This document shows positions 13,744 through 49,506 of a stretch of DNA of 64,000 nucleotides, piece by piece. The stretch is from an uncultured Alphaproteobacteria bacterium (GTDB lineage: Bacteria > Pseudomonadota > Alphaproteobacteria > RF32 > CAG-239): contig CAJTMA010000006.1 in the NCBI GenBank assembly GCA_910577205.1, positions 4,770 to 68,769 on the forward strand, written 5' to 3'. Both the position numbers and the translations under genes were made by a program. Below the pieces are notes generated by a model. It did no database searches. It was not told the DNA's origin and saw only the letters and a list, made by a program, of their open reading frames with translations. Within the stretch, counting starts at the first letter, position 1. Each line of letters opens with the position of its first letter.

Positions 13744-14541
13744 ATGAATTTTATTGATTTGGGTTTAAGCAGCAAAACCGTGCAGGCTATTGACGAGTTT
13801 GGCATTACCGAGCCAACAACCGTGCAGGCTGATGTCATCCCTTCCATTTTGCAAGGCAAAGATGTCTTTACGATTGCGCCGGCAGGCTGCGGCAAAACAA
13901 CTTCTTATGTTTTTCCGTTGCTGGATGTTATTTCCGGTGCTGACGGAAAACAAAAAAATATCCTGATTATTACGCCGGATTCCGAGCAGTCGGTTGTTGT
14001 TTCTGACAGAATGGCCATCTTCAACAAATATCATGAAATTAATGAAGCGACCATCAAAGACAAGGCTGAAGATATTGATAACGAAGCCAACGTCATTATC
14101 GGTTCTCCCGAGCTTTTGGTTGAACTGGTTAACGAAGAAAAACTCGACTTAGCCAAAACCAATATTTTAGTAGTGGATGATATTAATCTCATCAAAAAGA
14201 AAAAACAGCTGAACAATCTGGAAAAAATTCTGGATTTATTGCCAGCCGATAAACAAAATATTGTCTATACCAACCGCCGCTCCAAAGAAACTCAAGGCAT
14301 TTTAGATAAGATTTTGAAAGCGCCGGAAGAAATCAAAGTTGACAAGGCAAAAGAACAGGAAGCCGAACTGACGGCTAAAAATCCTGCACAGGAAACTGCC
14401 GCTCCCAAACAAAACAATCACCGTTGCAAACAGCCGGTTAAAGACAGCGAAGCTTTGGAACTGGTGAAAAAATATGACTCGTTCAACGGCAAGACGCCAT
14501 CTTTCCTGATAAATAAAGGCATCATAGTTAATATCGATTAA
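13744..14541 (+). CDS. DEAD-box-like protein with only the N-terminal RecA domain and degenerate motifs
   Basis: The Q motif (PTTVQ) and Walker A (APAGCGKT) are present. Motif II is VVDDIN in place of DEAD, and motif III is absent. No helicase C domain follows. The C-terminus is K/E-rich. I set the start at MNFIDLG (13744). Confidence 0.6.
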   Translation: MNFIDLGLSSKTVQAIDEFGITEPTTVQADVIPSILQGKDVFTIAPAGCGKTTSYVFPLLDVISGADGKQKNILIITPDSEQSVVVSDRMAIFNKYHEINEATIKDKAEDIDNEANVIIGSPELLVELVNEEKLDLAKTNILVVDDINLIKKKKQLNNLEKILDLLPADKQNIVYTNRRSKETQGILDKILKAPEEIKVDKAKEQEAELTAKNPAQETAAPKQNNHRCKQPVKDSEALELVKKYDSFNGKTPSFLINKGIIVNID

Positions 14542-14577
14542 AAAAGTCCCCTTGCTTTGGCAAGGGGACTTTTATTT
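14541..14577. terminator. bidirectional intrinsic terminator
   Basis: AAAAAGTCCCCTTGC-tttg-GCAAGGGGACTTTTATTT between the convergent DEAD-like gene and XRE copy 1. Confidence 0.6.
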
Positions 14578-14821
14578 AGGAAATATCTTCGAGTTCTATC
14601 TTGATTTTGCAGTTGTAAAACCCGGCCAGATAACTGAGCATACCCCAGTGAACATAGGCCTTGCCGCTTTCCACTTGGTCAAAGTAATGCGGCGAAACAC
14701 TGACTTTCATCGCCAATTCGTCGAGCGTCATCTTTTGCGATAGCCGCCGCTCATAAAACTGCCGCCCTAAATGGGCAAAAGTTTCCTGATTATTTTTTCT
14801 GATTTGTTTTTTGGTTAACAT
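14576..14821 (-). CDS. XRE-family helix-turn-helix transcriptional regulator (module copy 1)
   Basis: The HTH region is QKMTLDELAMKVSVSPHYFDQVESG. It is near-identical to the ORF at 48743-49000, differing by V/I and S/A. I chose the start at the second ATG (MLTKKQ), which has a GGAG RBS. The track start is 14833. Confidence 0.75.
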   Translation of the reverse strand: MLTKKQIRKNNQETFAHLGRQFYERRLSQKMTLDELAMKVSVSPHYFDQVESGKAYVHWGMLSYLAGFYNCKIKIELEDIS

Positions 14822-14926
14822 TTCCAACTCCATTTTTGTTTTTTAATAAACCCCACTTAATCTCCCCTTAAATTAAGGGGAGAAAGTCATGTTGCTCAGC
14901 AACATGACCAGAGGGGTTTTATAAGT

Positions 14927-15089
14927 TAAACAAAACCTGCCTTTAGCTTCCTAAAGGCAGGGGAGTTCGAAACTGTAACAGAACAGTCCGGGTTATTCGC
15001 GCATAGCCTTATCTCCCCGGCTCCCCTCAAAAGGAGTCGTTCTTTTCTGTTAGGAGTTTCGATACTCCACAATCCGTCTCCGGACTGCG
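14927..15089 (-). ncRNA. candidate structured small RNA or cis-regulatory leader (module copy 1)
   Basis: The promoter is TTGCAA-16 nt-TACAAT (15096-15123 on the minus strand). A long-range helix pairs CAGTCCGG with CCGGACTG, and there are several internal hairpins. It ends in the GC-rich hairpin CCTGCCTTTA...TAAAGGCAGG followed by a T-run. The second copy at 48485-48648 carries stem-preserving substitutions. Confidence 0.5.
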
Positions 15090-15252
15090 AGAATGATTGT
15101 AAGGCAAAATAGTTAATTTGCAATGAAAAAAAGCCTTACCCGGCGGGGTATTGGTCTTATTTCAGTTGCCGAGATTACTTCGTCACGCGTTTCTTGTGAG
15201 GACTGTTCTGTAAAAAAATCTCCGGCTTGCGGAGATTCTTAAAAGGGTGTCC

Positions 15253-35838: not shown

Positions 35839-35913
35839 GCCGCTGTAGCTCAGTGGTAGAGCACGTCATTGGTAATGACGGGGTCGCAAGTCCGATTCTT
35901 GCCAGCGGCACCA
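35839..35913 (+). tRNA. tRNA-Thr (anticodon GGU), CCA encoded
   Basis: Manual fold. The acceptor stem GCCGCTG pairs with CAGCGGC. The D stem is GCTC/GAGC. The anticodon stem CGTCA/TGACG carries the loop TTGGTAA, giving anticodon GGT. The T stem is GCAAG/CTTGC. The T loop TCCGATT is slightly unusual. Confidence 0.8.
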
Positions 35914-35949: not shown

Positions 35950-36100
35950 TTATCGTGGGACGGGCGGAATTGCGAAGCAAGTCTGACGAAGCCGGTTGGC
36001 GGCCATCAATCGGCGAAGGACGAGGAGCTAAAGCGACGAGGTCTTGAGCGGCAGCGAAAGATGCGCTCTACCGAAAGCCCCCGCACCTTCAAAGCCAGCG
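35950..36100. repeat. solitary degenerate unit of the 80-bp repeat family (left boundary of the AT-rich islet)
   Basis: Positions 35974-36002 (GAAGCAAGTCTGACGAAGCCGGTTGGCGG) are identical to 39968-39996 in the last unit of the tandem array. The downstream CCGCACCTTCAA motif is also shared with 40052-40063. Confidence 0.6.
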
Positions 36101-38197: not shown

Positions 38198-38848
38198 TTA
38201 TATGCGGCTTTCAGTCCATAGTGGTGTTAAAGTTTCTTTATACTGAGTATAATCAGTATATAACTTTTCATATTTGACAATCAGGTGCTTTTTAGCCATC
38301 CGCCACTCCGGATGTTCTTTAGCATTGATAACATGGTAGCTGTTGTCAGACAAAATAAAATGGAAAAGGTAAAACTCTTCACCATAAATACGGCCTGTAT
38401 ATCTTCCATTAATTTTGCCGTTGCTTTTTGACATACCAGCACCGACACCGCCACCAATACCGAGAACACCTCCGCCACCTCCGATTGATGATAAGTCACC
38501 GTTCAAAGAACCGTGCTCTTGAGTATCGGCTTCTTTTTCCCAGGAACAGGCAATAATTTTCAGCTTTTTGCTAACATTATTCTTTTTTATAAATTCCTGA
38601 AGTTTGTCAGTTTCTGCTTGTCGTGTTGCCCGTTGTTTTTCCACCTCAATCAGGTAAACAGAATCAACAGACAATCTGATAGATTTTTGTACCGTTTGTT
38701 CACAATTCGCAAGATATTCTTCTATTTTCTTTTGTTCCGCTTGCAGTGTGGAGATTTGAGAATCAGAGATAAAGTTTTCTGCTTGATATTTTTGAAGCTG
38801 ATCTCTGGAGGCTTCCCCATATAAAAGCAATAGCTTCCCACACAACAA
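38198..38848 (-). CDS. hypothetical protein with a coiled-coil N-terminus and a glycine-zipper motif. It may be the 3' part of a frameshifted gene.
   Basis: The GGGGGVLGIGGGVGAGMS tract resembles a glycine zipper of the SlyB/17-kDa-antigen type. There is no signal peptide of its own. The first 127 bp overlap the upstream ORF in another frame. Confidence 0.4.
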   Translation of the reverse strand: MLCGKLLLLYGEASRDQLQKYQAENFISDSQISTLQAEQKKIEEYLANCEQTVQKSIRLSVDSVYLIEVEKQRATRQAETDKLQEFIKKNNVSKKLKIIACSWEKEADTQEHGSLNGDLSSIGGGGGVLGIGGGVGAGMSKSNGKINGRYTGRIYGEEFYLFHFILSDNSYHVINAKEHPEWRMAKKHLIVKYEKLYTDYTQYKETLTPLWTESRI

Positions 38849-39252
38849 CTTCCGATAAACATGATGGAAGCAATCAGCATACCCGAATTACTGCTTTCTT
38901 CATAAACTTGCCCTCTAAAATCAACTTTGTCCCGCGGTATAGATTTTAGAAATAAAAATATAGAAAAAACAATAGGTATGACCATCCAATGTTTGATATC
39001 ATCATATGAGCTACTCATTTTTTGCTTTTCGGCGGTTAATTCATTTTTCCGATTGGAAATCGTTTGAGTAATCGCCGATAACTTTTTTCTTTGCTCGTGA
39101 TAACCGTGCTTGCTTATTTCTTTATCGTAAAATTGCTTTTCGATAACCCGTTTATCGATGTTAGATAAATATCCTGTAGCGTTTTGCGCATACAACAAAC
39201 AAAATATCGGCATAAGTGCCGACAAAACTGCAATAATAATTTTCTTTTTCAT
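38722..39252 (-). CDS. hypothetical secreted or membrane protein (signal peptide plus two TM helices)
   Basis: MKKKIIIAVLSALMPIFCLLYAQN is a signal peptide. Hydrophobic segments follow (WMVIPIVFSIFLFL, MLIASIMFIGSCCVGSYCFY) and the tail is basic. Confidence 0.45.
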   Translation of the reverse strand: MKKKIIIAVLSALMPIFCLLYAQNATGYLSNIDKRVIEKQFYDKEISKHGYHEQRKKLSAITQTISNRKNELTAEKQKMSSSYDDIKHWMVIPIVFSIFLFLKSIPRDKVDFRGQVYEESSNSGMLIASIMFIGSCCVGSYCFYMGKPPEISFKNIKQKTLSLILKSPHCKRNKRK

Positions 39253-39423
39253 AATGTTTTATTTTAATTGTTAATATTTTTTAAAACAAAAAACATTTTT
39301 GAAACCAAGATTGATTACTCAATAATTGACTACAATAATGCTTTTTAATGAGTAAAGAATATCACATCCCCCTATTTTTGCAAGCACAAAAATTGACAAA
39401 AAAGGAGAGATAAGGAGTTTTGC

Positions 39424-40026
39424 GGCGGAGGGAGAGGCGCTTTATGGCGAGGGGTGAGCCGAGTTGCAAAGCAAGTTTGGCAAGCCGGTTGGCGGCGGTC
39501 ATCGGCGAAGCGAGAGGCGTTTTGAGGCGGAGGTTGAGCCGAGTTGCAAAGCAAGTTTGGCAAGCCTGCCGGTGGCGGTCATCGGCGGAGGGAGAGGCGC
39601 TTTGAGGCGGAGGTTGAGCCGCGTTGCGAAGCAAGTCCGACAAGCTGGTTGGCGGCAGTCATCGGCGGAGGGAGAGGCGTTTTATGGCGTGGGGTGAGCC
39701 GCGTTGCGAAGCTAGTCCGGCAAGCCGGTTGGCGGAGGTCATCGGTAGAGGATGTGCCGCAAAGCGCCACAGGTTGGGCTGAGTTGCGAAGCTAGTCCGG
39801 CAAGCCGGTTGGCGGAGGTCATCGGTAGAGGATGTGCCGCAAAGCGCCACAGGTTGAGCTGAGTTGCGAAGCAAGTCCGGCAAGCCGGTTGGCGGCGGTC
39901 ATCGGCGGAGGATGAGGAGCTTTGTGACGTGGGTTGAGCCGTGTTGTGAAGCAAGTCTGACGAAGCCGGTTGGCGGAGGTCATCGGCGGAGGATGAGGCG
40001 CTTTGTGGTGTGAGTTGAGCCATTAA
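39424..40026. repeat. tandem array of about 7.5 copies of an 80-bp repeat, not a CRISPR array
   Basis: Full units start at 39456, 39536, 39616, 39696, 39776, 39856 and 39936. A representative unit is GAGCCGAGTTGCAAAGCAAGTTTGGCAAGCCGGTTGGCGGCGGTCATCGGCGGAGGGAGAGGCGCTTTGAGGCGGAGGTT. Copies are about 85-97% identical and there are no unique spacers. Each unit contains the small palindromes TTGCaaaGCAA and GCCGgttggCGGC. Confidence 0.85.
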
Positions 40027-40089: not shown

Positions 40090-43000
40090 CTACCAGTTAT
40101 AACTTGTACCCAAGCCTAAGGATGATGCCCGGTAATGACTGCCGAAGGTATGGTTGGCCCAGCCGTATGCTGAGAAGTAATCAGAGAAACCATAGCGGCC
40201 GCCTACTTCTAAACGTCCCAATGTTTGATTTTTCAGCACGTCCATTTTTCGCAAGCCAGTCACTTTTACCTCATCGCCATCATTAAATGTTTGAACCAAA
40301 ATTGGTTTGACATAAACATTGCCGTAGCCGTCATCGACTTCAAATGTCTTGGTCAATCTGGTACCAAATTCTGCTTCCATTTGTCTTAATGGGGTATACT
40401 GAGCTGTTTTGCCAGCGCTATCACTTGCATTATCATACTTGACCTGTGTATAAAAGAGGCCGACTTCCGGTGTGAAATAGAGCGATTTGTTCAGCGCATA
40501 ATCATAACCAAACGCGACACTACCACCAAACTCTGTTCCGTCAGTATTTGAGGTTATACCGTCTTTCGTTTTGATATCAACCTGCTGTATCCCGCCAAAC
40601 AAAGTCGCAAAAGCCCACCAATTTCTTTGATCGTAACGGTAATACAATCCGGCCAAATAGCTATCGATGTCAATTTCCGATTCTGTTACTGAGTAATAAT
40701 AACGGCCATAGCCATTCATGTCATAATTACCCTTACGATAAGAGAAGAACAATCCCAGTTTGTTATACAAGTCGTGTTGCAGCGTACCGCCGGCTTCCAA
40801 GCCCCAAACGTCAGATTCAACACCGACAGTTTCTTTATTCGTTGAAGAATAATAAACAGCGTTCGCCCACAGCGTATCAAACGGTTTACCATCCCAATAA
40901 AAATCATAGAAACCGCAAGACGGGCAATAAAGTCTGTTTCCCTGAACCTGACGGTCAATATTGCCAATCATTCCTCTGGTCTGCTCCAGTGCGGCTACAG
41001 GTAAAGCCTGATAAGCAATGACTTCAGGCACAACCTTACGCCCACGGCTAAATACCGGAGAAGAGATATTCGGAATATTGGGCACATCCGGGATATTCGG
41101 AACATCCGGAACGCCGGGAAGATCCGGCTGGGCATTCTTATCAGGATTGTCACTGTCGTTCATAACCAAATCCCATTGATTGGCATTATTTCCAAGGGAA
41201 GCGTATTTGACATCATACAAATAAGGGCTTCTGTAAACGCGCGAAACCACAAATGATCCCTCGTTACCGGTCGTATCATTTTCTGACTGTGCAAACAAGA
41301 TACTTCCCTTGCCGCGAATATCCGTGTCGGAAGAAGCATGAACAATCACTTTAGTCACACCTTCAACATTACCGGCGATATGCAACTCGTCCGCCGTCAT
41401 ATTATCCGGGTCAACATTAATATGCAGAAAACTGTCTGTCGCCGAATATCCTTTGAGGTTGACAATATCCCGATAATTGTTGGCCAAGCTAAAGACCGCA
41501 TTGTTCAATGTCAAAGTGGTTGCAGCGTCATCACGGTTGACAGAGCCATCCGTGTTCAACGCGGCAGCAAACGCACCTTTGCTATCCCAATTGCGGGCGC
41601 TTTGATCTTCGTGCTGATAGTCGCCGAAAACAAGAGATGTTCCGCTGACGGTTACACTTTCGGCATTGATAATATCGTTGTTCATTGCAATATATTGGGA
41701 AGTTGTTCCCTTAACGGCATCAACGACATCGTCTCCCGTAAAGTTGTATATTCCATTTCTCAAGTTATCATTAATAACCCAGCTGCCGCCGCCGGAAGTA
41801 TCAAAAGTAAATTCAGAAGTTGTATTTCCGAGCACAGCATTATAAATTTTGCCATAACTGCCGTTTTCCGTATAGTTGCCGGACATGAAATATGTATCAG
41901 CTCCGGAAGCGAATGTCATATTGCCAAGCGTATATACCGCGCCGCCCGATTTGGCATGATTGTTAAGGAAATTGCCGCTGATTTTGCCAAATACAGCTCC
42001 GGTATTGCCATAGATAGCGCCACCGTATTCGACAGCCGAGTTCCCGATAAAATCACCGCTGATAGTCCCAATGGTTTTATTCAAATCATTATAAATAGCG
42101 CCGCCGCGTTTTTCCGCTGAATTGGCGATGAAATCTCCGGAGATGTTTTTGATTTCCTTAGCGTTTTTGATAGCGCCGCCATGCCCCAATGTGGCATTGC
42201 CGATGAAGTTTCCGTTAATTTCATTAATGGTTCCCATACCGCCATTGTTAATAGCACCGCCGCCATAATCACTGACATTGCTGTTTGCCTTGTTAGCAAT
42301 AAAATCACCGGTAATTTTGTTAATTGTTCCTTCGTTTTCTATTGCCCCTGCTTTAATCCCTGCTGTATTGCCAATGAAATCTCCGGTAATATCGCCGATT
42401 TGCCCGTAATGGTAATTGTAAACAGCACCACCGATTGCAGCGGCCGAATTAGCGATAAAATTGCCGGTAATATCTTCAATAACCCGACTAGTGCTATTAT
42501 AAATAGCGCCGCCGGAGCCGTTTGTACCATCAACATGATTGCCGACGAAATCACCGGTTAGATTGCCCATCGTGCTGTTATTGCTAATAGCACCGCCGTT
42601 AGTTATTGCGGCATTGGCAATAAAGTTGCCGGTAACATCTCCGGTTGTTCCCTCATTGTAAATCGCACCGCCTGAGCCGCCTCCCGGAGCCTGCCCTGCT
42701 ATATTGCCAATAAAGTCACCGTTAATATTGCCAATTTGCGCGTTTTTATAGTTATAAATAGCGCCGCCGTTTCCTTTTTGGTCGCTTCGCGCCAGCCCTG
42801 TATAGTTGCCAACAAAGTCACTGTTTATTTCACCTATTGTTCCGGAGTTGTAAATAGCGCCGGCACCACTTGGAGCATAGTTGTGTACGAAACTCCCCTT
42901 AATACTGTCAATTGTTCCGCTGTTATTGATACCGCCGCCTTTTGAAGCACTTCTTTCGATATTTACAAAATCGGCATCAACATCACCGGTTAAACCTGTT

Positions 43001-43446
43001 TGAGCAGATGTGTATTTTGTGCGACCGGGAATATCCGTATATGTATATTTGAAATACTGCGTGTCACCATTAGGAAGTTGGAGTTTAACGACATCATCCC
43101 CTTCGGCAGAAACTTTTTCCCATGAAATATTTTCCGCCGATGAAAATTTATCCTGAAGCATGACTATTTTATAATATTTATTGCTTAAGTTACCCTTATC
43201 GTCTGCTTCCTGAATAATAAAATCATAATCGCTGTCAGAACCTTCCTGATATGTAAAGGCACTGGACGGGAGTGTCGTTAAGTCAAACAAAGCGTTCGGG
43301 GTTTCCGTCAATGCTCCGGCAGGCGCAACACCGTTTGCTTCTGCGCTTGATTTATTTAATGTTGGTTCTAAAGACCATGCTGAAGACGACACGCCCCCTA
43401 AAGCGGCGGCCATTAACATTATTGTCCAAGTAGTTTGTTTAGTCAT
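40090..43446 (-). CDS. autotransporter outer-membrane protein with a Pmp-like GGAI/FxxN repeat passenger
   Basis: The signal peptide is MTKQTTWTIMLMAAALGGVSSSAWS. There are more than 20 degenerate repeats of the form G(D/N)FIGN...GGAIYN. A C-terminal beta-barrel region of about 280 aa ends in ...GTSYNW, an aromatic terminus. Confidence 0.85.
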   Translation of the reverse strand: MTKQTTWTIMLMAAALGGVSSSAWSLEPTLNKSSAEANGVAPAGALTETPNALFDLTTLPSSAFTYQEGSDSDYDFIIQEADDKGNLSNKYYKIVMLQDKFSSAENISWEKVSAEGDDVVKLQLPNGDTQYFKYTYTDIPGRTKYTSAQTGLTGDVDADFVNIERSASKGGGINNSGTIDSIKGSFVHNYAPSGAGAIYNSGTIGEINSDFVGNYTGLARSDQKGNGGAIYNYKNAQIGNINGDFIGNIAGQAPGGGSGGAIYNEGTTGDVTGNFIANAAITNGGAISNNSTMGNLTGDFVGNHVDGTNGSGGAIYNSTSRVIEDITGNFIANSAAAIGGAVYNYHYGQIGDITGDFIGNTAGIKAGAIENEGTINKITGDFIANKANSNVSDYGGGAINNGGMGTINEINGNFIGNATLGHGGAIKNAKEIKNISGDFIANSAEKRGGAIYNDLNKTIGTISGDFIGNSAVEYGGAIYGNTGAVFGKISGNFLNNHAKSGGAVYTLGNMTFASGADTYFMSGNYTENGSYGKIYNAVLGNTTSEFTFDTSGGGSWVINDNLRNGIYNFTGDDVVDAVKGTTSQYIAMNNDIINAESVTVSGTSLVFGDYQHEDQSARNWDSKGAFAAALNTDGSVNRDDAATTLTLNNAVFSLANNYRDIVNLKGYSATDSFLHINVDPDNMTADELHIAGNVEGVTKVIVHASSDTDIRGKGSILFAQSENDTTGNEGSFVVSRVYRSPYLYDVKYASLGNNANQWDLVMNDSDNPDKNAQPDLPGVPDVPNIPDVPNIPNISSPVFSRGRKVVPEVIAYQALPVAALEQTRGMIGNIDRQVQGNRLYCPSCGFYDFYWDGKPFDTLWANAVYYSSTNKETVGVESDVWGLEAGGTLQHDLYNKLGLFFSYRKGNYDMNGYGRYYYSVTESEIDIDSYLAGLYYRYDQRNWWAFATLFGGIQQVDIKTKDGITSNTDGTEFGGSVAFGYDYALNKSLYFTPEVGLFYTQVKYDNASDSAGKTAQYTPLRQMEAEFGTRLTKTFEVDDGYGNVYVKPILVQTFNDGDEVKVTGLRKMDVLKNQTLGRLEVGGRYGFSDYFSAYGWANHTFGSHYRASSLGLGTSYNW

Positions 43447-48416: not shown

Positions 48417-48450
48417 AAAAGCCCCTTGCCCAAGCAAGGGGCTTTTTTTC
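48417..48450 (+). terminator. murA intrinsic terminator
   Basis: AAAAGCCCCTTGC-ccaa-GCAAGGGGC followed by T7. Confidence 0.7.
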
Positions 48451-48478
48451 ATTGCAAATTAACTTTTTTCCCTTACAA
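48451..48478 (+). promoter_or_regulatory. near-consensus sigma70 promoter of the structured RNA (module copy 2)
   Basis: TTGCAA (48451-48456), a 16-nt spacer, then TACAAT (48473-48478). The same arrangement is found in copy 1. Confidence 0.6.
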
Positions 48479-48484
48479 TCATTC

Positions 48485-48648
48485 TCGCAGTCCGGAGACG
48501 GGTTGTGGGGTATGCAAACTCCTACAAGAAAAGAACGACTCCTTTTGAGGGGAGCCGGGGATATAAGGCTATGCGCGAATAACCCGGACTGTTCTTGTAC
48601 AGTTTGCAACTCCCCTGCCTTTAGACTTCTAAAGGCAGGTTTTGTTTT
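48485..48648 (+). ncRNA. candidate structured small RNA or cis-regulatory leader (module copy 2)
   Basis: It begins about 7 nt after the -10 element. The helix CAGTCCGG (~48486) pairs with CCGGACTG (~48586). Hairpins include GGGGTatgcaaACTCC and ACTGTtcttgtACAGT. The terminator is CCTGCCTTTAgacttcTAAAGGCAGG followed by TTTTGTTTT (48614-48648). The ORF-like reading 48452-48703 is not conserved at the protein level between the two copies. Confidence 0.5.
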
Positions 48649-48667
48649 AACTTATAAAACCCCTCTG

Positions 48668-48714
48668 GTCATGTTGCTAAGCAACATGACTTTCTCCCCT
48701 TAATTTAAGGGGAG
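48668..48714 (+). promoter_or_regulatory. two perfect palindromes between the RNA terminator and the XRE gene; candidate operators or mRNA hairpins
   Basis: GTCATGTTGC-taag-GCAACATGAC (48668-48690) and CTCCCCTTA-att-TAAGGGGAG (48694-48714). Both are conserved in copy 1 at 14886-14908 and 14862-14882, with only the loops differing. Confidence 0.5.
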
Positions 48715-48754
48715 ATTAAGTGGGGTTTATCTAAAAACAAAAATGGAGTTGGAA

Positions 48755-49000
48755 ATGTTAACCAAAAAACAAATCAGAAAAAATAATCAGGAAACTTTTG
48801 CCCATTTAGGGCGGCAGTTTTATGAGCGGCGGTTATCACAAAAGATGACGCTTGACGAATTGGCAATGAAAGTCAGTGTTTCGCCGCATTATTTCGATCA
48901 AGTAGAAAGCGGCAAGGCATATATCCACTGGGGAATGCTCAGTTATCTGGCTGGGTTTTACAACTGCAAAATCAAAATAGAACTGGAGGATATTGCTTAA
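48755..49000 (+). CDS. XRE-family helix-turn-helix transcriptional regulator (module copy 2)
   Basis: 81 aa from the second ATG, which has a GGAG RBS. It is near-identical to copy 1, and the HTH is MTLDELAMKVSVSPHYFDQVESG. Confidence 0.75.
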   Translation: MLTKKQIRKNNQETFAHLGRQFYERRLSQKMTLDELAMKVSVSPHYFDQVESGKAYIHWGMLSYLAGFYNCKIKIELEDIA

Positions 49001-49002
49001 AT

Positions 49003-49037
49003 AAAAAGCCCCTTGCCAAAAGCAAGGGGCTTTTTTT
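49003..49037. terminator. bidirectional intrinsic terminator
   Basis: AAAAAGCCCCTTGC-caaaa-GCAAGGGGC followed by T7. It lies between the XRE gene and the convergent ORF at 49036-49506. Confidence 0.65.
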
Positions 49038-49506
49038 AATCAGCTTTGCCTCGAAACAAAATATCCGGGTGCGTATCCATCCATTGGCAGAAATCATACC
49101 GACTGAAAGATGCTCCCGCCGTTTCATGGATACGGCGGTTTTGATTATAAGACTGCTCCAAATGTTCCAGCGTTTCGTATTCCGTTTCGCTGTAAACACG
49201 ATTCAGCTCCTGATAAATAGCCAAACGTTCTTCCGCATTAAATTGGGCAATAAATTTCTCGGCATGAGCTATTTGCTGCTCGAAACGACTGTTAAACTCG
49301 CGGGTTAAGTTATCAAGTTTATAATTTTGCGCAGCACAGTAGCGCGGATAGGCTTCAGTTTGCTGGCGGCGGAAAAGCAAAAAAGCCGTTACGTTATCAA
49401 ATTCTGACTTATCATAGGCGGTTTCTCCCTGTGGCGCTTGTTGCACGGCCAGACTGACCGCCCACCCCACAATTAAAACCAGAACAATTTGCAGATATTT
49501 TTTCAT
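49036..49506 (-). CDS. hypothetical secreted protein
   Basis: The signal peptide is MKKYLQIVLVLIVGWAVSLAVQQA. The body is helical. Confidence 0.5.
   Translation of the reverse strand: MKKYLQIVLVLIVGWAVSLAVQQAPQGETAYDKSEFDNVTAFLLFRRQQTEAYPRYCAAQNYKLDNLTREFNSRFEQQIAHAEKFIAQFNAEERLAIYQELNRVYSETEYETLEHLEQSYNQNRRIHETAGASFSRYDFCQWMDTHPDILFRGKAD

Follow-up and report, generated by a model that had tools for sequence, protein, structure and literature searches.

A conserved RNA family of gut Alphaproteobacteria precedes genes for small XRE-type proteins and may act as a bistable leader controlling their translation

In the C4 RNA of phages P1 and P7 and the CI RNA of P4, a regulatory RNA lies in the leader of the gene that it controls and shares its promoter; one RNA segment can pair with a complement on either side, of which the one downstream covers the ribosome-binding site (RBS). 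The C4 RNA of P1 reportedly represses icd/ant from within its own leader, and its complementary sites are said to follow the layout a2b2/a'b'/a1b1. It is described as an antisense RNA of the immI operon of phages P1/P7 (Citron & Schuster 1990, as cited in PMC8201110). Many genomes, prophages, and integrons also have annotated copies of a second element, the small RNA (sRNA) sRNA-Xcc1 (Rfam RF02221), which has been found in integron cassettes ahead of symE (10.1101/2025.06.18.660453), in APSE phages ahead of an ORF6N gene (10.1101/2020.03.17.996009), and in Xylella as five tandem copies (PMC12189769). Here we show that a 64,000-nucleotide stretch of DNA from an uncultured Alphaproteobacteria bacterium (lineage RF32; CAG-239; contig CAJTMA010000006.1 of assembly GCA_910577205.1), hereafter the window, carries two copies of a module made up of a promoter, a structured RNA of about 160 nt ending in its own terminator, and a gene for a small XRE/Cro-type protein (Table 1). 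The RNA represents a well-supported and previously uncatalogued family from uncultured Alphaproteobacteria of the human and animal gut. Its best reading, which we hold with about even confidence, is that of a bistable leader RNA gating translation of a small XRE repressor.

The RNA fits no Rfam family at either gathering or permissive thresholds, and a literature string search with its conserved sequences found no paper. Contigs carrying relatives of the XRE protein differ in their neighbouring genes (murA, a short-chain dehydrogenase gene, ftsK, gpsA, secDF), and on every one of them that has upstream DNA the same RNA precedes the XRE gene. An earlier note on this DNA had reasoned that, were the RNA and the palindromes beside it not conserved next to XRE homologues in related genomes, the module would probably be an incidental local duplication; the RNA was present 5' of every homologue examined, so this explanation does not apply to it. 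A GTDB scan for the conserved RNA pattern, with one genome per species, returned 34 loci, all in gut alphaproteobacterial metagenome-assembled genomes (MAGs), including Candidatus Scatocola faecipullorum, MAGs labelled Azospirillaceae, and MAGs from sheep, roe deer, and chicken, with up to 9 copies per MAG. A similar scan of metagenomes gave 60 further loci, about one third labelled human-gut metagenome and the others bearing record names without a source.

Linkage to the gene is close to complete. Among RNA copies with enough downstream DNA, 83 of 84 (51 of 52 unique copies) are followed on the same strand, within about 900 nt, by an XRE-family open reading frame (ORF); the ORFs of loci L014 and L041 are frameshifted, and the RNA copy of L043 is truncated. 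This pattern of evolution is unusual, in that the RNA (more than about 70% identical across copies), the promoter, and the layout of the translation start stay near constant while the protein diverges, often to just 25-35% identity with that of the window, in up to nine paralogues per genome. Module sites are chromosomal, between housekeeping genes and outside prophages. The RNA had no match in plasmid collections and matched a single, bacterial-looking record in phage collections, MT835910.

Positions 1-750 of that record (MT835910.1, 'Bacteriophage sp.', unverified; locus L048) hold three tandem RNA copies with promoters, one of them truncated, with no XRE ORF between them, and the remainder of the contig appears bacterial rather than phage (e.g., a clamp-loader gene). 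In a MAG of the same species as the window (L001:2704-2800), a different upstream flank, with MIF, hydrolase, and short-chain dehydrogenase genes, is joined to copy 2 inside the RNA (window position 48482 onward), leaving a 5' strand, UAGCAGC, that mismatches the 3' strand. The join resembles an assembly artefact, a chimera with a third copy that is linked to the dehydrogenase gene, at a locus orthologous to L010.

Compared with dinucleotide shuffles, the RNA folds with z-scores of -4.95 (copy 2) and -6.36 (copy 1). The window-derived fold has a 5' hairpin (P1), a long helix (P2), and a three-way-junction core. Across the family the P1 loop is GAGA or GNGUU, and P2 has three parts: P2a (GGAGU:ACUCC) and the freely varying P2b and P2c, the pairs in P2b being of the types GC/CG/AU, AU/GC/CG, and CG/AU/UA (e.g., GC 14, AU 13, CG 12). 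Within the junction, the loops GAUAUAAG and CGAAUAA are almost invariant and flank a small hairpin of variable length; P4 reads CUGCC/GGCAG in one L048 copy. In a plain MAFFT alignment of 36 distinct copies, 85.8% of cells pair according to the window-derived fold, compared with at most 52.6% when partners are slid by 1-3 columns. In an alignment fitted to covariance model R1 (45 hits), which was built on the structure and is hence biased towards it, 97.2% pair and 19 of 36 pairs have changed on both sides; none of 500 shuffles reached the observed values, and slid partners gave at most 49%. RNAalifold applied to the same alignment favours another fold, with a local GGAGU:ACUCC hairpin, GGGGAG paired to a distal CUCCCC, and an ACUGU:ACAGU hairpin, on which covariation is silent because all its pairs are invariant. 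In the window, too, the 5' strand of the long helix includes a proximal ACUCC (within 48507-48530) able to pair locally with GGGGU as a hairpin. An 83-codon, TTG-initiated ORF overlaps the RNA; a coding role was judged unlikely, as the compensatory pattern of substitution argues for RNA structure.

Comparison of the two copies within the window, which lie in inverted orientation and are 92.7% identical over 601 bp, confirms that the duplication described in the earlier note is genuine and that it comprises the promoter, the structured RNA and its terminator, and the XRE gene. That note had also suggested mapping the substitutions onto the predicted helices. Sixteen of the RNA's 162 bases differ, and eight of these make up four double compensatory changes, converting UGCAAAC/GUUUGCA to UCGAAAC/GUUUCGA and ACAAGAA/UUCUUGU to AACAGAA/UUCUGUU. 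Of the 18 substitutions in the ORF, 16 are synonymous (dS 0.449, dN 0.010, ratio 0.023), from which it follows that the duplication is old and the protein under strong purifying selection. With such values and four doubly compensated pairs, the module is far beyond chance. The promoter (2 of 36 bases) and the spacer with its palindromes (3 of 106) have diverged far less than synonymous sites of the ORF. Near-identity extends from the spacer about 58 nt into the ORF (48649-48812), the remainder of which has the dS given above, and reflects either constraint on the structure of the translation start or a gene-conversion tract. A covariance-model search found no third copy within the 64-kb window. 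As inverted repeats of 600 bp lying 33 kb apart (14537-15135, minus strand, and 48440-49040, plus strand), the two copies could recombine to invert the segment between them.

The last bases of the 3' strand in the long helix, AACUCCCC, complement the 5' GGGGU as well as the RBS. The RBS is GGAGUU, complementary to the terminal AACUCC of the helix, in 26 of the 29 distinct combinations of strand and site that were listed; in the other three loci (L024, L028, and L031) the strand reads CACCUCC and the site GGAGGUG, a change that is matched in the RBS and not in the 5' strand. The duplex of 3' strand and RBS has an energy of -12.2 kcal/mol, versus -4.9 for shuffled sites, and RNAalifold run on the 3' segment alone yields a helix of 3' strand and RBS that closes over the terminator. 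When each pairing of the 3' strand was forced in turn, copy 2 had a predicted energy of -113.8 kcal/mol with the 5' strand paired and the RBS free (ON), and of -112.1 with the RBS paired through 11 bp reaching the start codon (OFF). Over 35 members the predicted ddG(OFF-ON) was +1.0 ± 2.9 kcal/mol, with 24 of them within ±3. For the 25 members with short spacers it was +1.0 ± 2.9, against +5.7 ± 3.3 when spacer and flanks were shuffled with GGAG kept (Mann-Whitney p = 2e-9). At predicted equilibrium the RBS is paired with a mean probability of 0.68. By prediction, then, the two structures are mutually exclusive, in the manner of a riboswitch expression platform, and their near-equal modelled energies may be read as those of a tuned bistable switch.

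The region between terminator and gene appears to be fitted to the RNA as well. In relatives without insertions the RBS begins 10-19 nt after the terminator U-run, which leaves no room for a separate ORF promoter; in the spacers that were read, the ORF itself begins 10-20 nt past the T-run, or up to 180 nt past it where insertions are present. In all 32 distinct spacers the terminator tail forms the 5' arm of a hairpin with an A-run just 5' of the RBS. This hairpin is weak (-1.7 to -5.7 kcal/mol), and its interrupting base covaries, UUUUGUUUU occurring with AAAACAAAA and UUUCUUUU with AAAGAAA (G/C), as tallied by script in 23 spacers and by eye in the rest. Its loop holds the palindromes in the window, another hairpin in the group of L007, L008, and L010, and an insert of 170 nt in L027. 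Sitting in this loop like the inserts of other members, the palindromes are therefore a lineage-specific insertion rather than part of the module core. Upstream, the promoter is conserved in about 40 copies and in many relatives its -35 box lies inside an AT-rich palindrome, TTAATTGCAAATTAA (both by eye). An operator here that covaries with protein subfamily was considered and rejected, the palindrome being identical in all subfamilies by eye, and no element of the module covaries with the protein.

Taken together, these features suggest that transcription from the module's own promoter produces the 160-nt RNA as a leader, which would gate the XRE-family repressor encoded just 3' of it. Most transcripts would probably halt at the intrinsic terminator, yielding a stable small RNA, and those reading through would carry the ORF. 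In the ON fold, the 3'-strand AACUCC would pair with the 5' GGAGU and the variable helix would form, leaving the RBS free. In the OFF fold, the same AACUCC would pair with GGAGUU of the RBS and with bases up to the start codon, and the 5' GGAGU would fold back onto a nearby ACUCC; the hairpins of the terminator and of the U-run/A-run pair would draw both OFF partners together in a three-way junction. The inner junction (P2c/P3/P4), invariant and present in both predicted folds, would be where the factor that tips the balance docks; candidates are the XRE protein, a small molecule, or some third component. Expression of the repressor would thus be limited in two ways, by termination and by the balance of RBS-freeing and RBS-hiding folds. 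The analysis shows the fold and its conservation, the link to the gene, the complementarity, and the closeness of the predicted energies; partial termination and the operation of the switch in cells are what we infer here. If correct, the model describes a testable two-state design in a new RNA family of the gut, and it comes close to one suggestion of the earlier note, namely regulation of read-through from the RNA.

Several points weigh against this model. The covariation seen for the RBS pairing amounts to a single event (the L024 group), the pairing of RBS with 3' strand reaches a mean probability of only 0.30 at predicted equilibrium, and the energies are predictions throughout. The sequences are related, and permutation p-values for this reason overstate significance. 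No antiterminator was found, so that read-through is assumed, not shown. Finally, the RNA occurs without an ORF in L019, and the tandem copies in L048 likewise lack ORFs, so the RNA may have an independent function.

Table 1. Features of the module in the window (positions in window coordinates)
Feature	Position	Strand	Composition or basis
murA terminator	stem 48417-48446, then T-run		terminator scan
Sigma-70-like promoter, copy 2	TTGCAA 48452-48457, 16-nt spacer, TACAAT 48474-48479	+	scan; directly after murA terminator
Structured RNA, copy 2	48487-48648 (162 nt), own intrinsic terminator included	+	folding and scan
P1, 5' hairpin, GAGA loop	48487-48506	+	compensatory changes in 4/6 pairs
Long helix, 5' strand	48507-48530	+	GGGGU (P2a, RBS mimic), UGCAAACU (variable P2b), UACAAGAA (P2c)
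Three-way-junction core	48539-48587	+	P3 CUCCUU/GGGGAG, P4 CCGGG/CCCGG, small variable hairpin P4b
Long helix, 3' strand	48592-48615	+	UUCUUGUA, AGUUUGCA, ending AACUCCCC
Intrinsic terminator of the RNA	48614-48648; stem 48614-48639 (11 bp)	+	ACUU loop, tail UUUUGUUUU; scan
Insertion between RNA and gene	48654-48730	+	outer inverted repeat and two perfect 23-nt palindromes
Outer inverted repeat enclosing both palindromes	48654-48663 / 48722-48730	+	ATAAAACCCC / GGGGTTTAT; sequence reading
Palindrome 1	48668-48690	+	GTCATGTTGC-TAA-GCAACATGAC
Palindrome 2	48693-48715	+	TCTCCCCTTAA-T-TTAAGGGGAGA
A-run, RBS, and start codon	A-run 48733-48743, RBS 48745-48750, ATG 48755-48757	+	A-run AAAAACAAAAA; RBS GGAGUU
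XRE/Cro-type helix-turn-helix gene, 81 aa	48755-49000	+	HTH_31 sub-cut-off match, predicted fold, dN/dS 0.023
Closing hairpin flanked by A-/T-runs	49003-49036	both	common to convergent ORF 49036-49506; by eye
Copy 1, whole module	14537-15135	-	RNA core 14959-15089, ORF 14576-14821

The encoded protein belongs to a very small family. Its relatives form only 15 clusters among 5.8 billion proteins, and a HMMER search of 1.84 billion representatives gave 185 matches at E <= 0.001, many of them generic multi-domain helix-turn-helix proteins. The start of the ORF was set at ATG 48755 because an in-frame upstream ATG, at 48743, is not conserved in relatives. The protein misses Pfam cut-offs (HTH_31, 24.4 bits versus 27; HTH_3, 15 versus 23), and most relatives carry precomputed PF13560 matches. 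An AlphaFold2 model (pLDDT 88.7) has four helices, followed by a C-terminal segment left unassigned by DSSP, and adopts the Cro/C1-type helical helix-turn-helix fold; Foldseek matched it to the small dimeric repressors C.BclI, C.AhdI, HipB, 434 Cro, and ClgR with probability 1.0 and TM 0.6-0.7, the best E-value being only 7.5e-3. The window protein has a conserved C-terminal strand, KIKIEL, and a C-terminal motif, YYxKKIxIxLVD, is kept in all subfamilies. The protein thus shares fold and size with XRE, Cro, C-protein, and HipB repressors, and a C-terminal strand with HipB. It differs from such repressors in the very small size of its family, its sub-cut-off Pfam score, the absence of partner toxin or restriction-modification genes nearby, and the RNA that always precedes its gene. 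Some remote matches to the XRE profile (P0016, P0018, P0020, and P0026) are proteins of 250-880 aa in which 3-6 helix-turn-helix domains follow one another in tandem.

Judged from sequence, sRNA-Xcc1 appears to be the closest known relative of the RNA, which has its core and architecture but misses its score threshold. RF02221 gave the only meaningful Rfam alignment, covering the full model length at 24 bits (E 0.029 in a 186-nt search; gathering score 53), and eight other loci gave no sRNA-Xcc1 match in a 34-kb search. The part that aligns is the junction core. As aligned, both cores can form a closing helix of GGGG…CCCC, a CCGGG-type helix whose internal loops, AUAYAA and GAAUAA, surround a small hairpin, and a CUGU…ACAG hairpin. 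Both RNAs also have a 5' segment complementary to the 3' part of the core and lie directly 5' of small same-strand genes, in several copies or tandem arrays. Model R1 in turn matches an Xcc1-type element with the same 5'-strand arrangement in L049 (28.7 bits, E 9e-4). An sRNA-Xcc1-type fold of the window RNA is possible, and RNAalifold predicts it as an alternative, but its distinctive pairs are invariant and covariation backs the competing long helix. Unlike sRNA-Xcc1, the window RNA has a 5' strand contiguous with the core, a separate terminator of its own and a U-run/A-run hairpin, and is followed by an XRE gene, not by symE or a Bro-N/ORF6N gene; its hosts are gut Alphaproteobacteria, its sites chromosomal and non-prophage, and its family lacks a convincing cognate downstream target site. 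A BLAST search of the Rfam Xcc1 consensus against plasmids gave no match.

Several other explanations were weighed. The RNA might be a stand-alone, trans-acting sRNA, with the XRE gene a mere partner (e.g., a regulator of its promoter) or an incidental product of read-through, and its C-rich motifs, among which ACUCC occurs three times, would then target the RBSs of other mRNAs. The strong intrinsic terminator with its U-tail fits such a role, as do the ORF-less RNA copies (L019 and the three in tandem in L048), the much better conservation of RNA than of protein between subfamilies (>70% versus 25-35% identity), and the detection of sRNA-Xcc1, the nearest known RNA, as a discrete species of about 88 nt (PMC2996969). 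However, all three ACUCC motifs are base-paired in the fold supported by covariation; the spacer, the U-run/A-run hairpin, and the RBS flanks are tuned to the RNA, which would be needless for a mere neighbour; and 51/52 unique copies are linked to the ORF. We consider this explanation unlikely.

A true riboswitch, in which a small molecule bound by the invariant three-way junction (the GAUAUAAG and CGAAUAA loops with the AAAAGAAC linker) would make the long helix more stable and so release the RBS, seems to us more doubtful still. The near-invariant unpaired bases of the junction, set between freely covarying helices, form a pattern typical of aptamers, there are two near-isoenergetic folds with one strand in common, and genomes carry many copies. 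As in translational riboswitches, a conserved junction is combined with a strand that enters either the closing or the RBS-sequestering helix, at balanced predicted energies. On the other hand, every copy precedes the same kind of gene, a small regulator without a metabolic link, and nothing hints at a ligand. The junction remains intact in both folds, and a terminator stands between sensor and RBS with no antiterminator found, unlike the arrangement in translational riboswitches. In addition, the similar core of sRNA-Xcc1 precedes symE and Bro-N/ORF6N-type genes (10.1101/2025.06.18.660453; 10.1101/2020.03.17.996009), which suggests regulation of genes in mobile elements and not the sensing of metabolites. 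An antiterminator candidate, UAAGGC of a conserved loop against the 5' arm of the terminator, was dropped on inspection, being lost in long-loop variants.

A broader proposal, speculative and held with little confidence, is that the invariant junction represents a new RNA domain, either an aptamer or a binder of protein, with diverged kin in sRNA-Xcc1, that senses a metabolite, or the XRE protein in the role of an RNA binder, and so flips a translational switch. If true, this RNA and the widespread sRNA-Xcc1 found in prophages and integrons would together be a single large class of cis-acting sensors before small DNA-binding proteins.

A third explanation likens the module to phage P1 c4-icd/ant or to a type I toxin-antitoxin system, in which a copy-specific antisense leader RNA represses a harmful downstream protein and the variable helices provide specificity. 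It draws on genuine sRNA-Xcc1, which in viral contigs (12 of 14 scanned loci at or above the gathering score, 53-84 bits) precedes Bro-N-type genes, some in arrays whose units recur about every 380 nt, with C4 and isrK RNAs alongside. Over 101 distinct sRNA-Xcc1 elements, the 3' part of the core pairs with its own upstream region at -27.2 kcal/mol, versus -20.9 for the regions of other elements, and with its own downstream region at -23.3 versus -19.6; genuine cores thus show cognate complementarity on both sides, and in the L089 array the complementary sites covary unit by unit. The C4 RNA of phage P1 is described with such a layout. These observations point to sRNA-Xcc1 as an antisense regulator of the C4 kind, encoded in a leader, which is not stated in the literature searched. 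In the window family, the variable P2b and P2c strands occupy the same positions, and paralogues of one genome mostly differ there. Here, however, of the C4-type complements the upstream one is present and covaries, and the downstream one is only the generic GGAGUU. Copy-specific antisense targeting of the downstream mRNA was tried and found unconvincing: for the variable part, complementarity was not significant (p = 0.13), and a second test over 420 nt gave p = 0.018, with -13.4 versus -12.7 kcal/mol. The ordinary XRE/HipB/C-protein fold is one that typifies repressors and antitoxins rather than toxins, and the modules lie between housekeeping genes, not in prophages. Unlike C4, the RNA has no sequence or model match to RF01695, no icd/ant genes downstream, and no evidence of RNase P processing, and only the generic RBS pairing is conserved, not copy-specific sites. 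Applied to the window module, we regard the antisense explanation as improbable. The link to sRNA-Xcc1 suggests that both RNAs are leader-embedded regulators built on the logic of P1 C4 RNA, and would turn many 'virulence-associated sRNA' annotations into a concrete hypothesis. In L089:7500-9600 and L049:9950-11300, unit-specific complements were observed upstream of the sRNA-Xcc1 core and beside the RBS of the downstream gene.

Very little credence can be given to the earlier note's own model, in which an XRE dimer on the palindromes between RNA and gene represses its own gene or blocks read-through: two perfect 23-bp palindromes without G-T pairs, a spacer with 3/106 differences between copies despite a dS of 0.449, and a protein fold of the dimeric-repressor type would suit it, but no module of another species carries the palindromes, the low divergence could be a gene-conversion tract reaching about 58 nt into the ORF, and as RNA the palindromes are hairpins inside the loop of a conserved helix. 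Accordingly, a role for the palindromes as a conserved operator of the family was rejected, since the modules that lack them retain RNA and gene; they are confined to one species, others having a different hairpin or none at this place. Within this species, the XRE protein may bind them, the palindromes being perfect as DNA and the spacer differing at only 3 of 106 bases between copies. A type III toxin-antitoxin system of the ToxIN kind was rejected: the RNA is a single 160-nt unit, not a set of short tandem repeats, and the protein has a helix-turn-helix fold where such systems have an endoribonuclease toxin.

All features named in the earlier note are present in the sequence, with correct coordinates save for one palindrome spacer, given as four nucleotides (N4) where palindrome 1 has three (TAA); this palindrome can also be read as 11-bp arms around a single central base. 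The observation is real, stronger than that note supposed for the RNA and weaker for the palindromes; that note had missed the pairing of RBS and 3' strand, the U-run/A-run hairpin, and the multi-copy, clade-wide distribution. The hairpin that closes the module at 49003-49036 is not listed by the terminator scan, and the only sub-threshold Rfam-type matches there are terminator-like.

Elsewhere in the window, an 80-nt unit recurs 7.5 times (82% matches) in a non-coding tandem array (39423-40021), which lies between an ORF at 38722-39252 (176 aa, no Pfam match) and the stop of a minus-strand gene for an autotransporter (40090-43446). A related unit lies at 35954-36002, just after a tRNA gene (35839-35910) and about 3.5 kb from the array. 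Inside the autotransporter gene, positions 42116-42737 hold diverged repeats of 75-96 nt, presumably repeats of the passenger domain.

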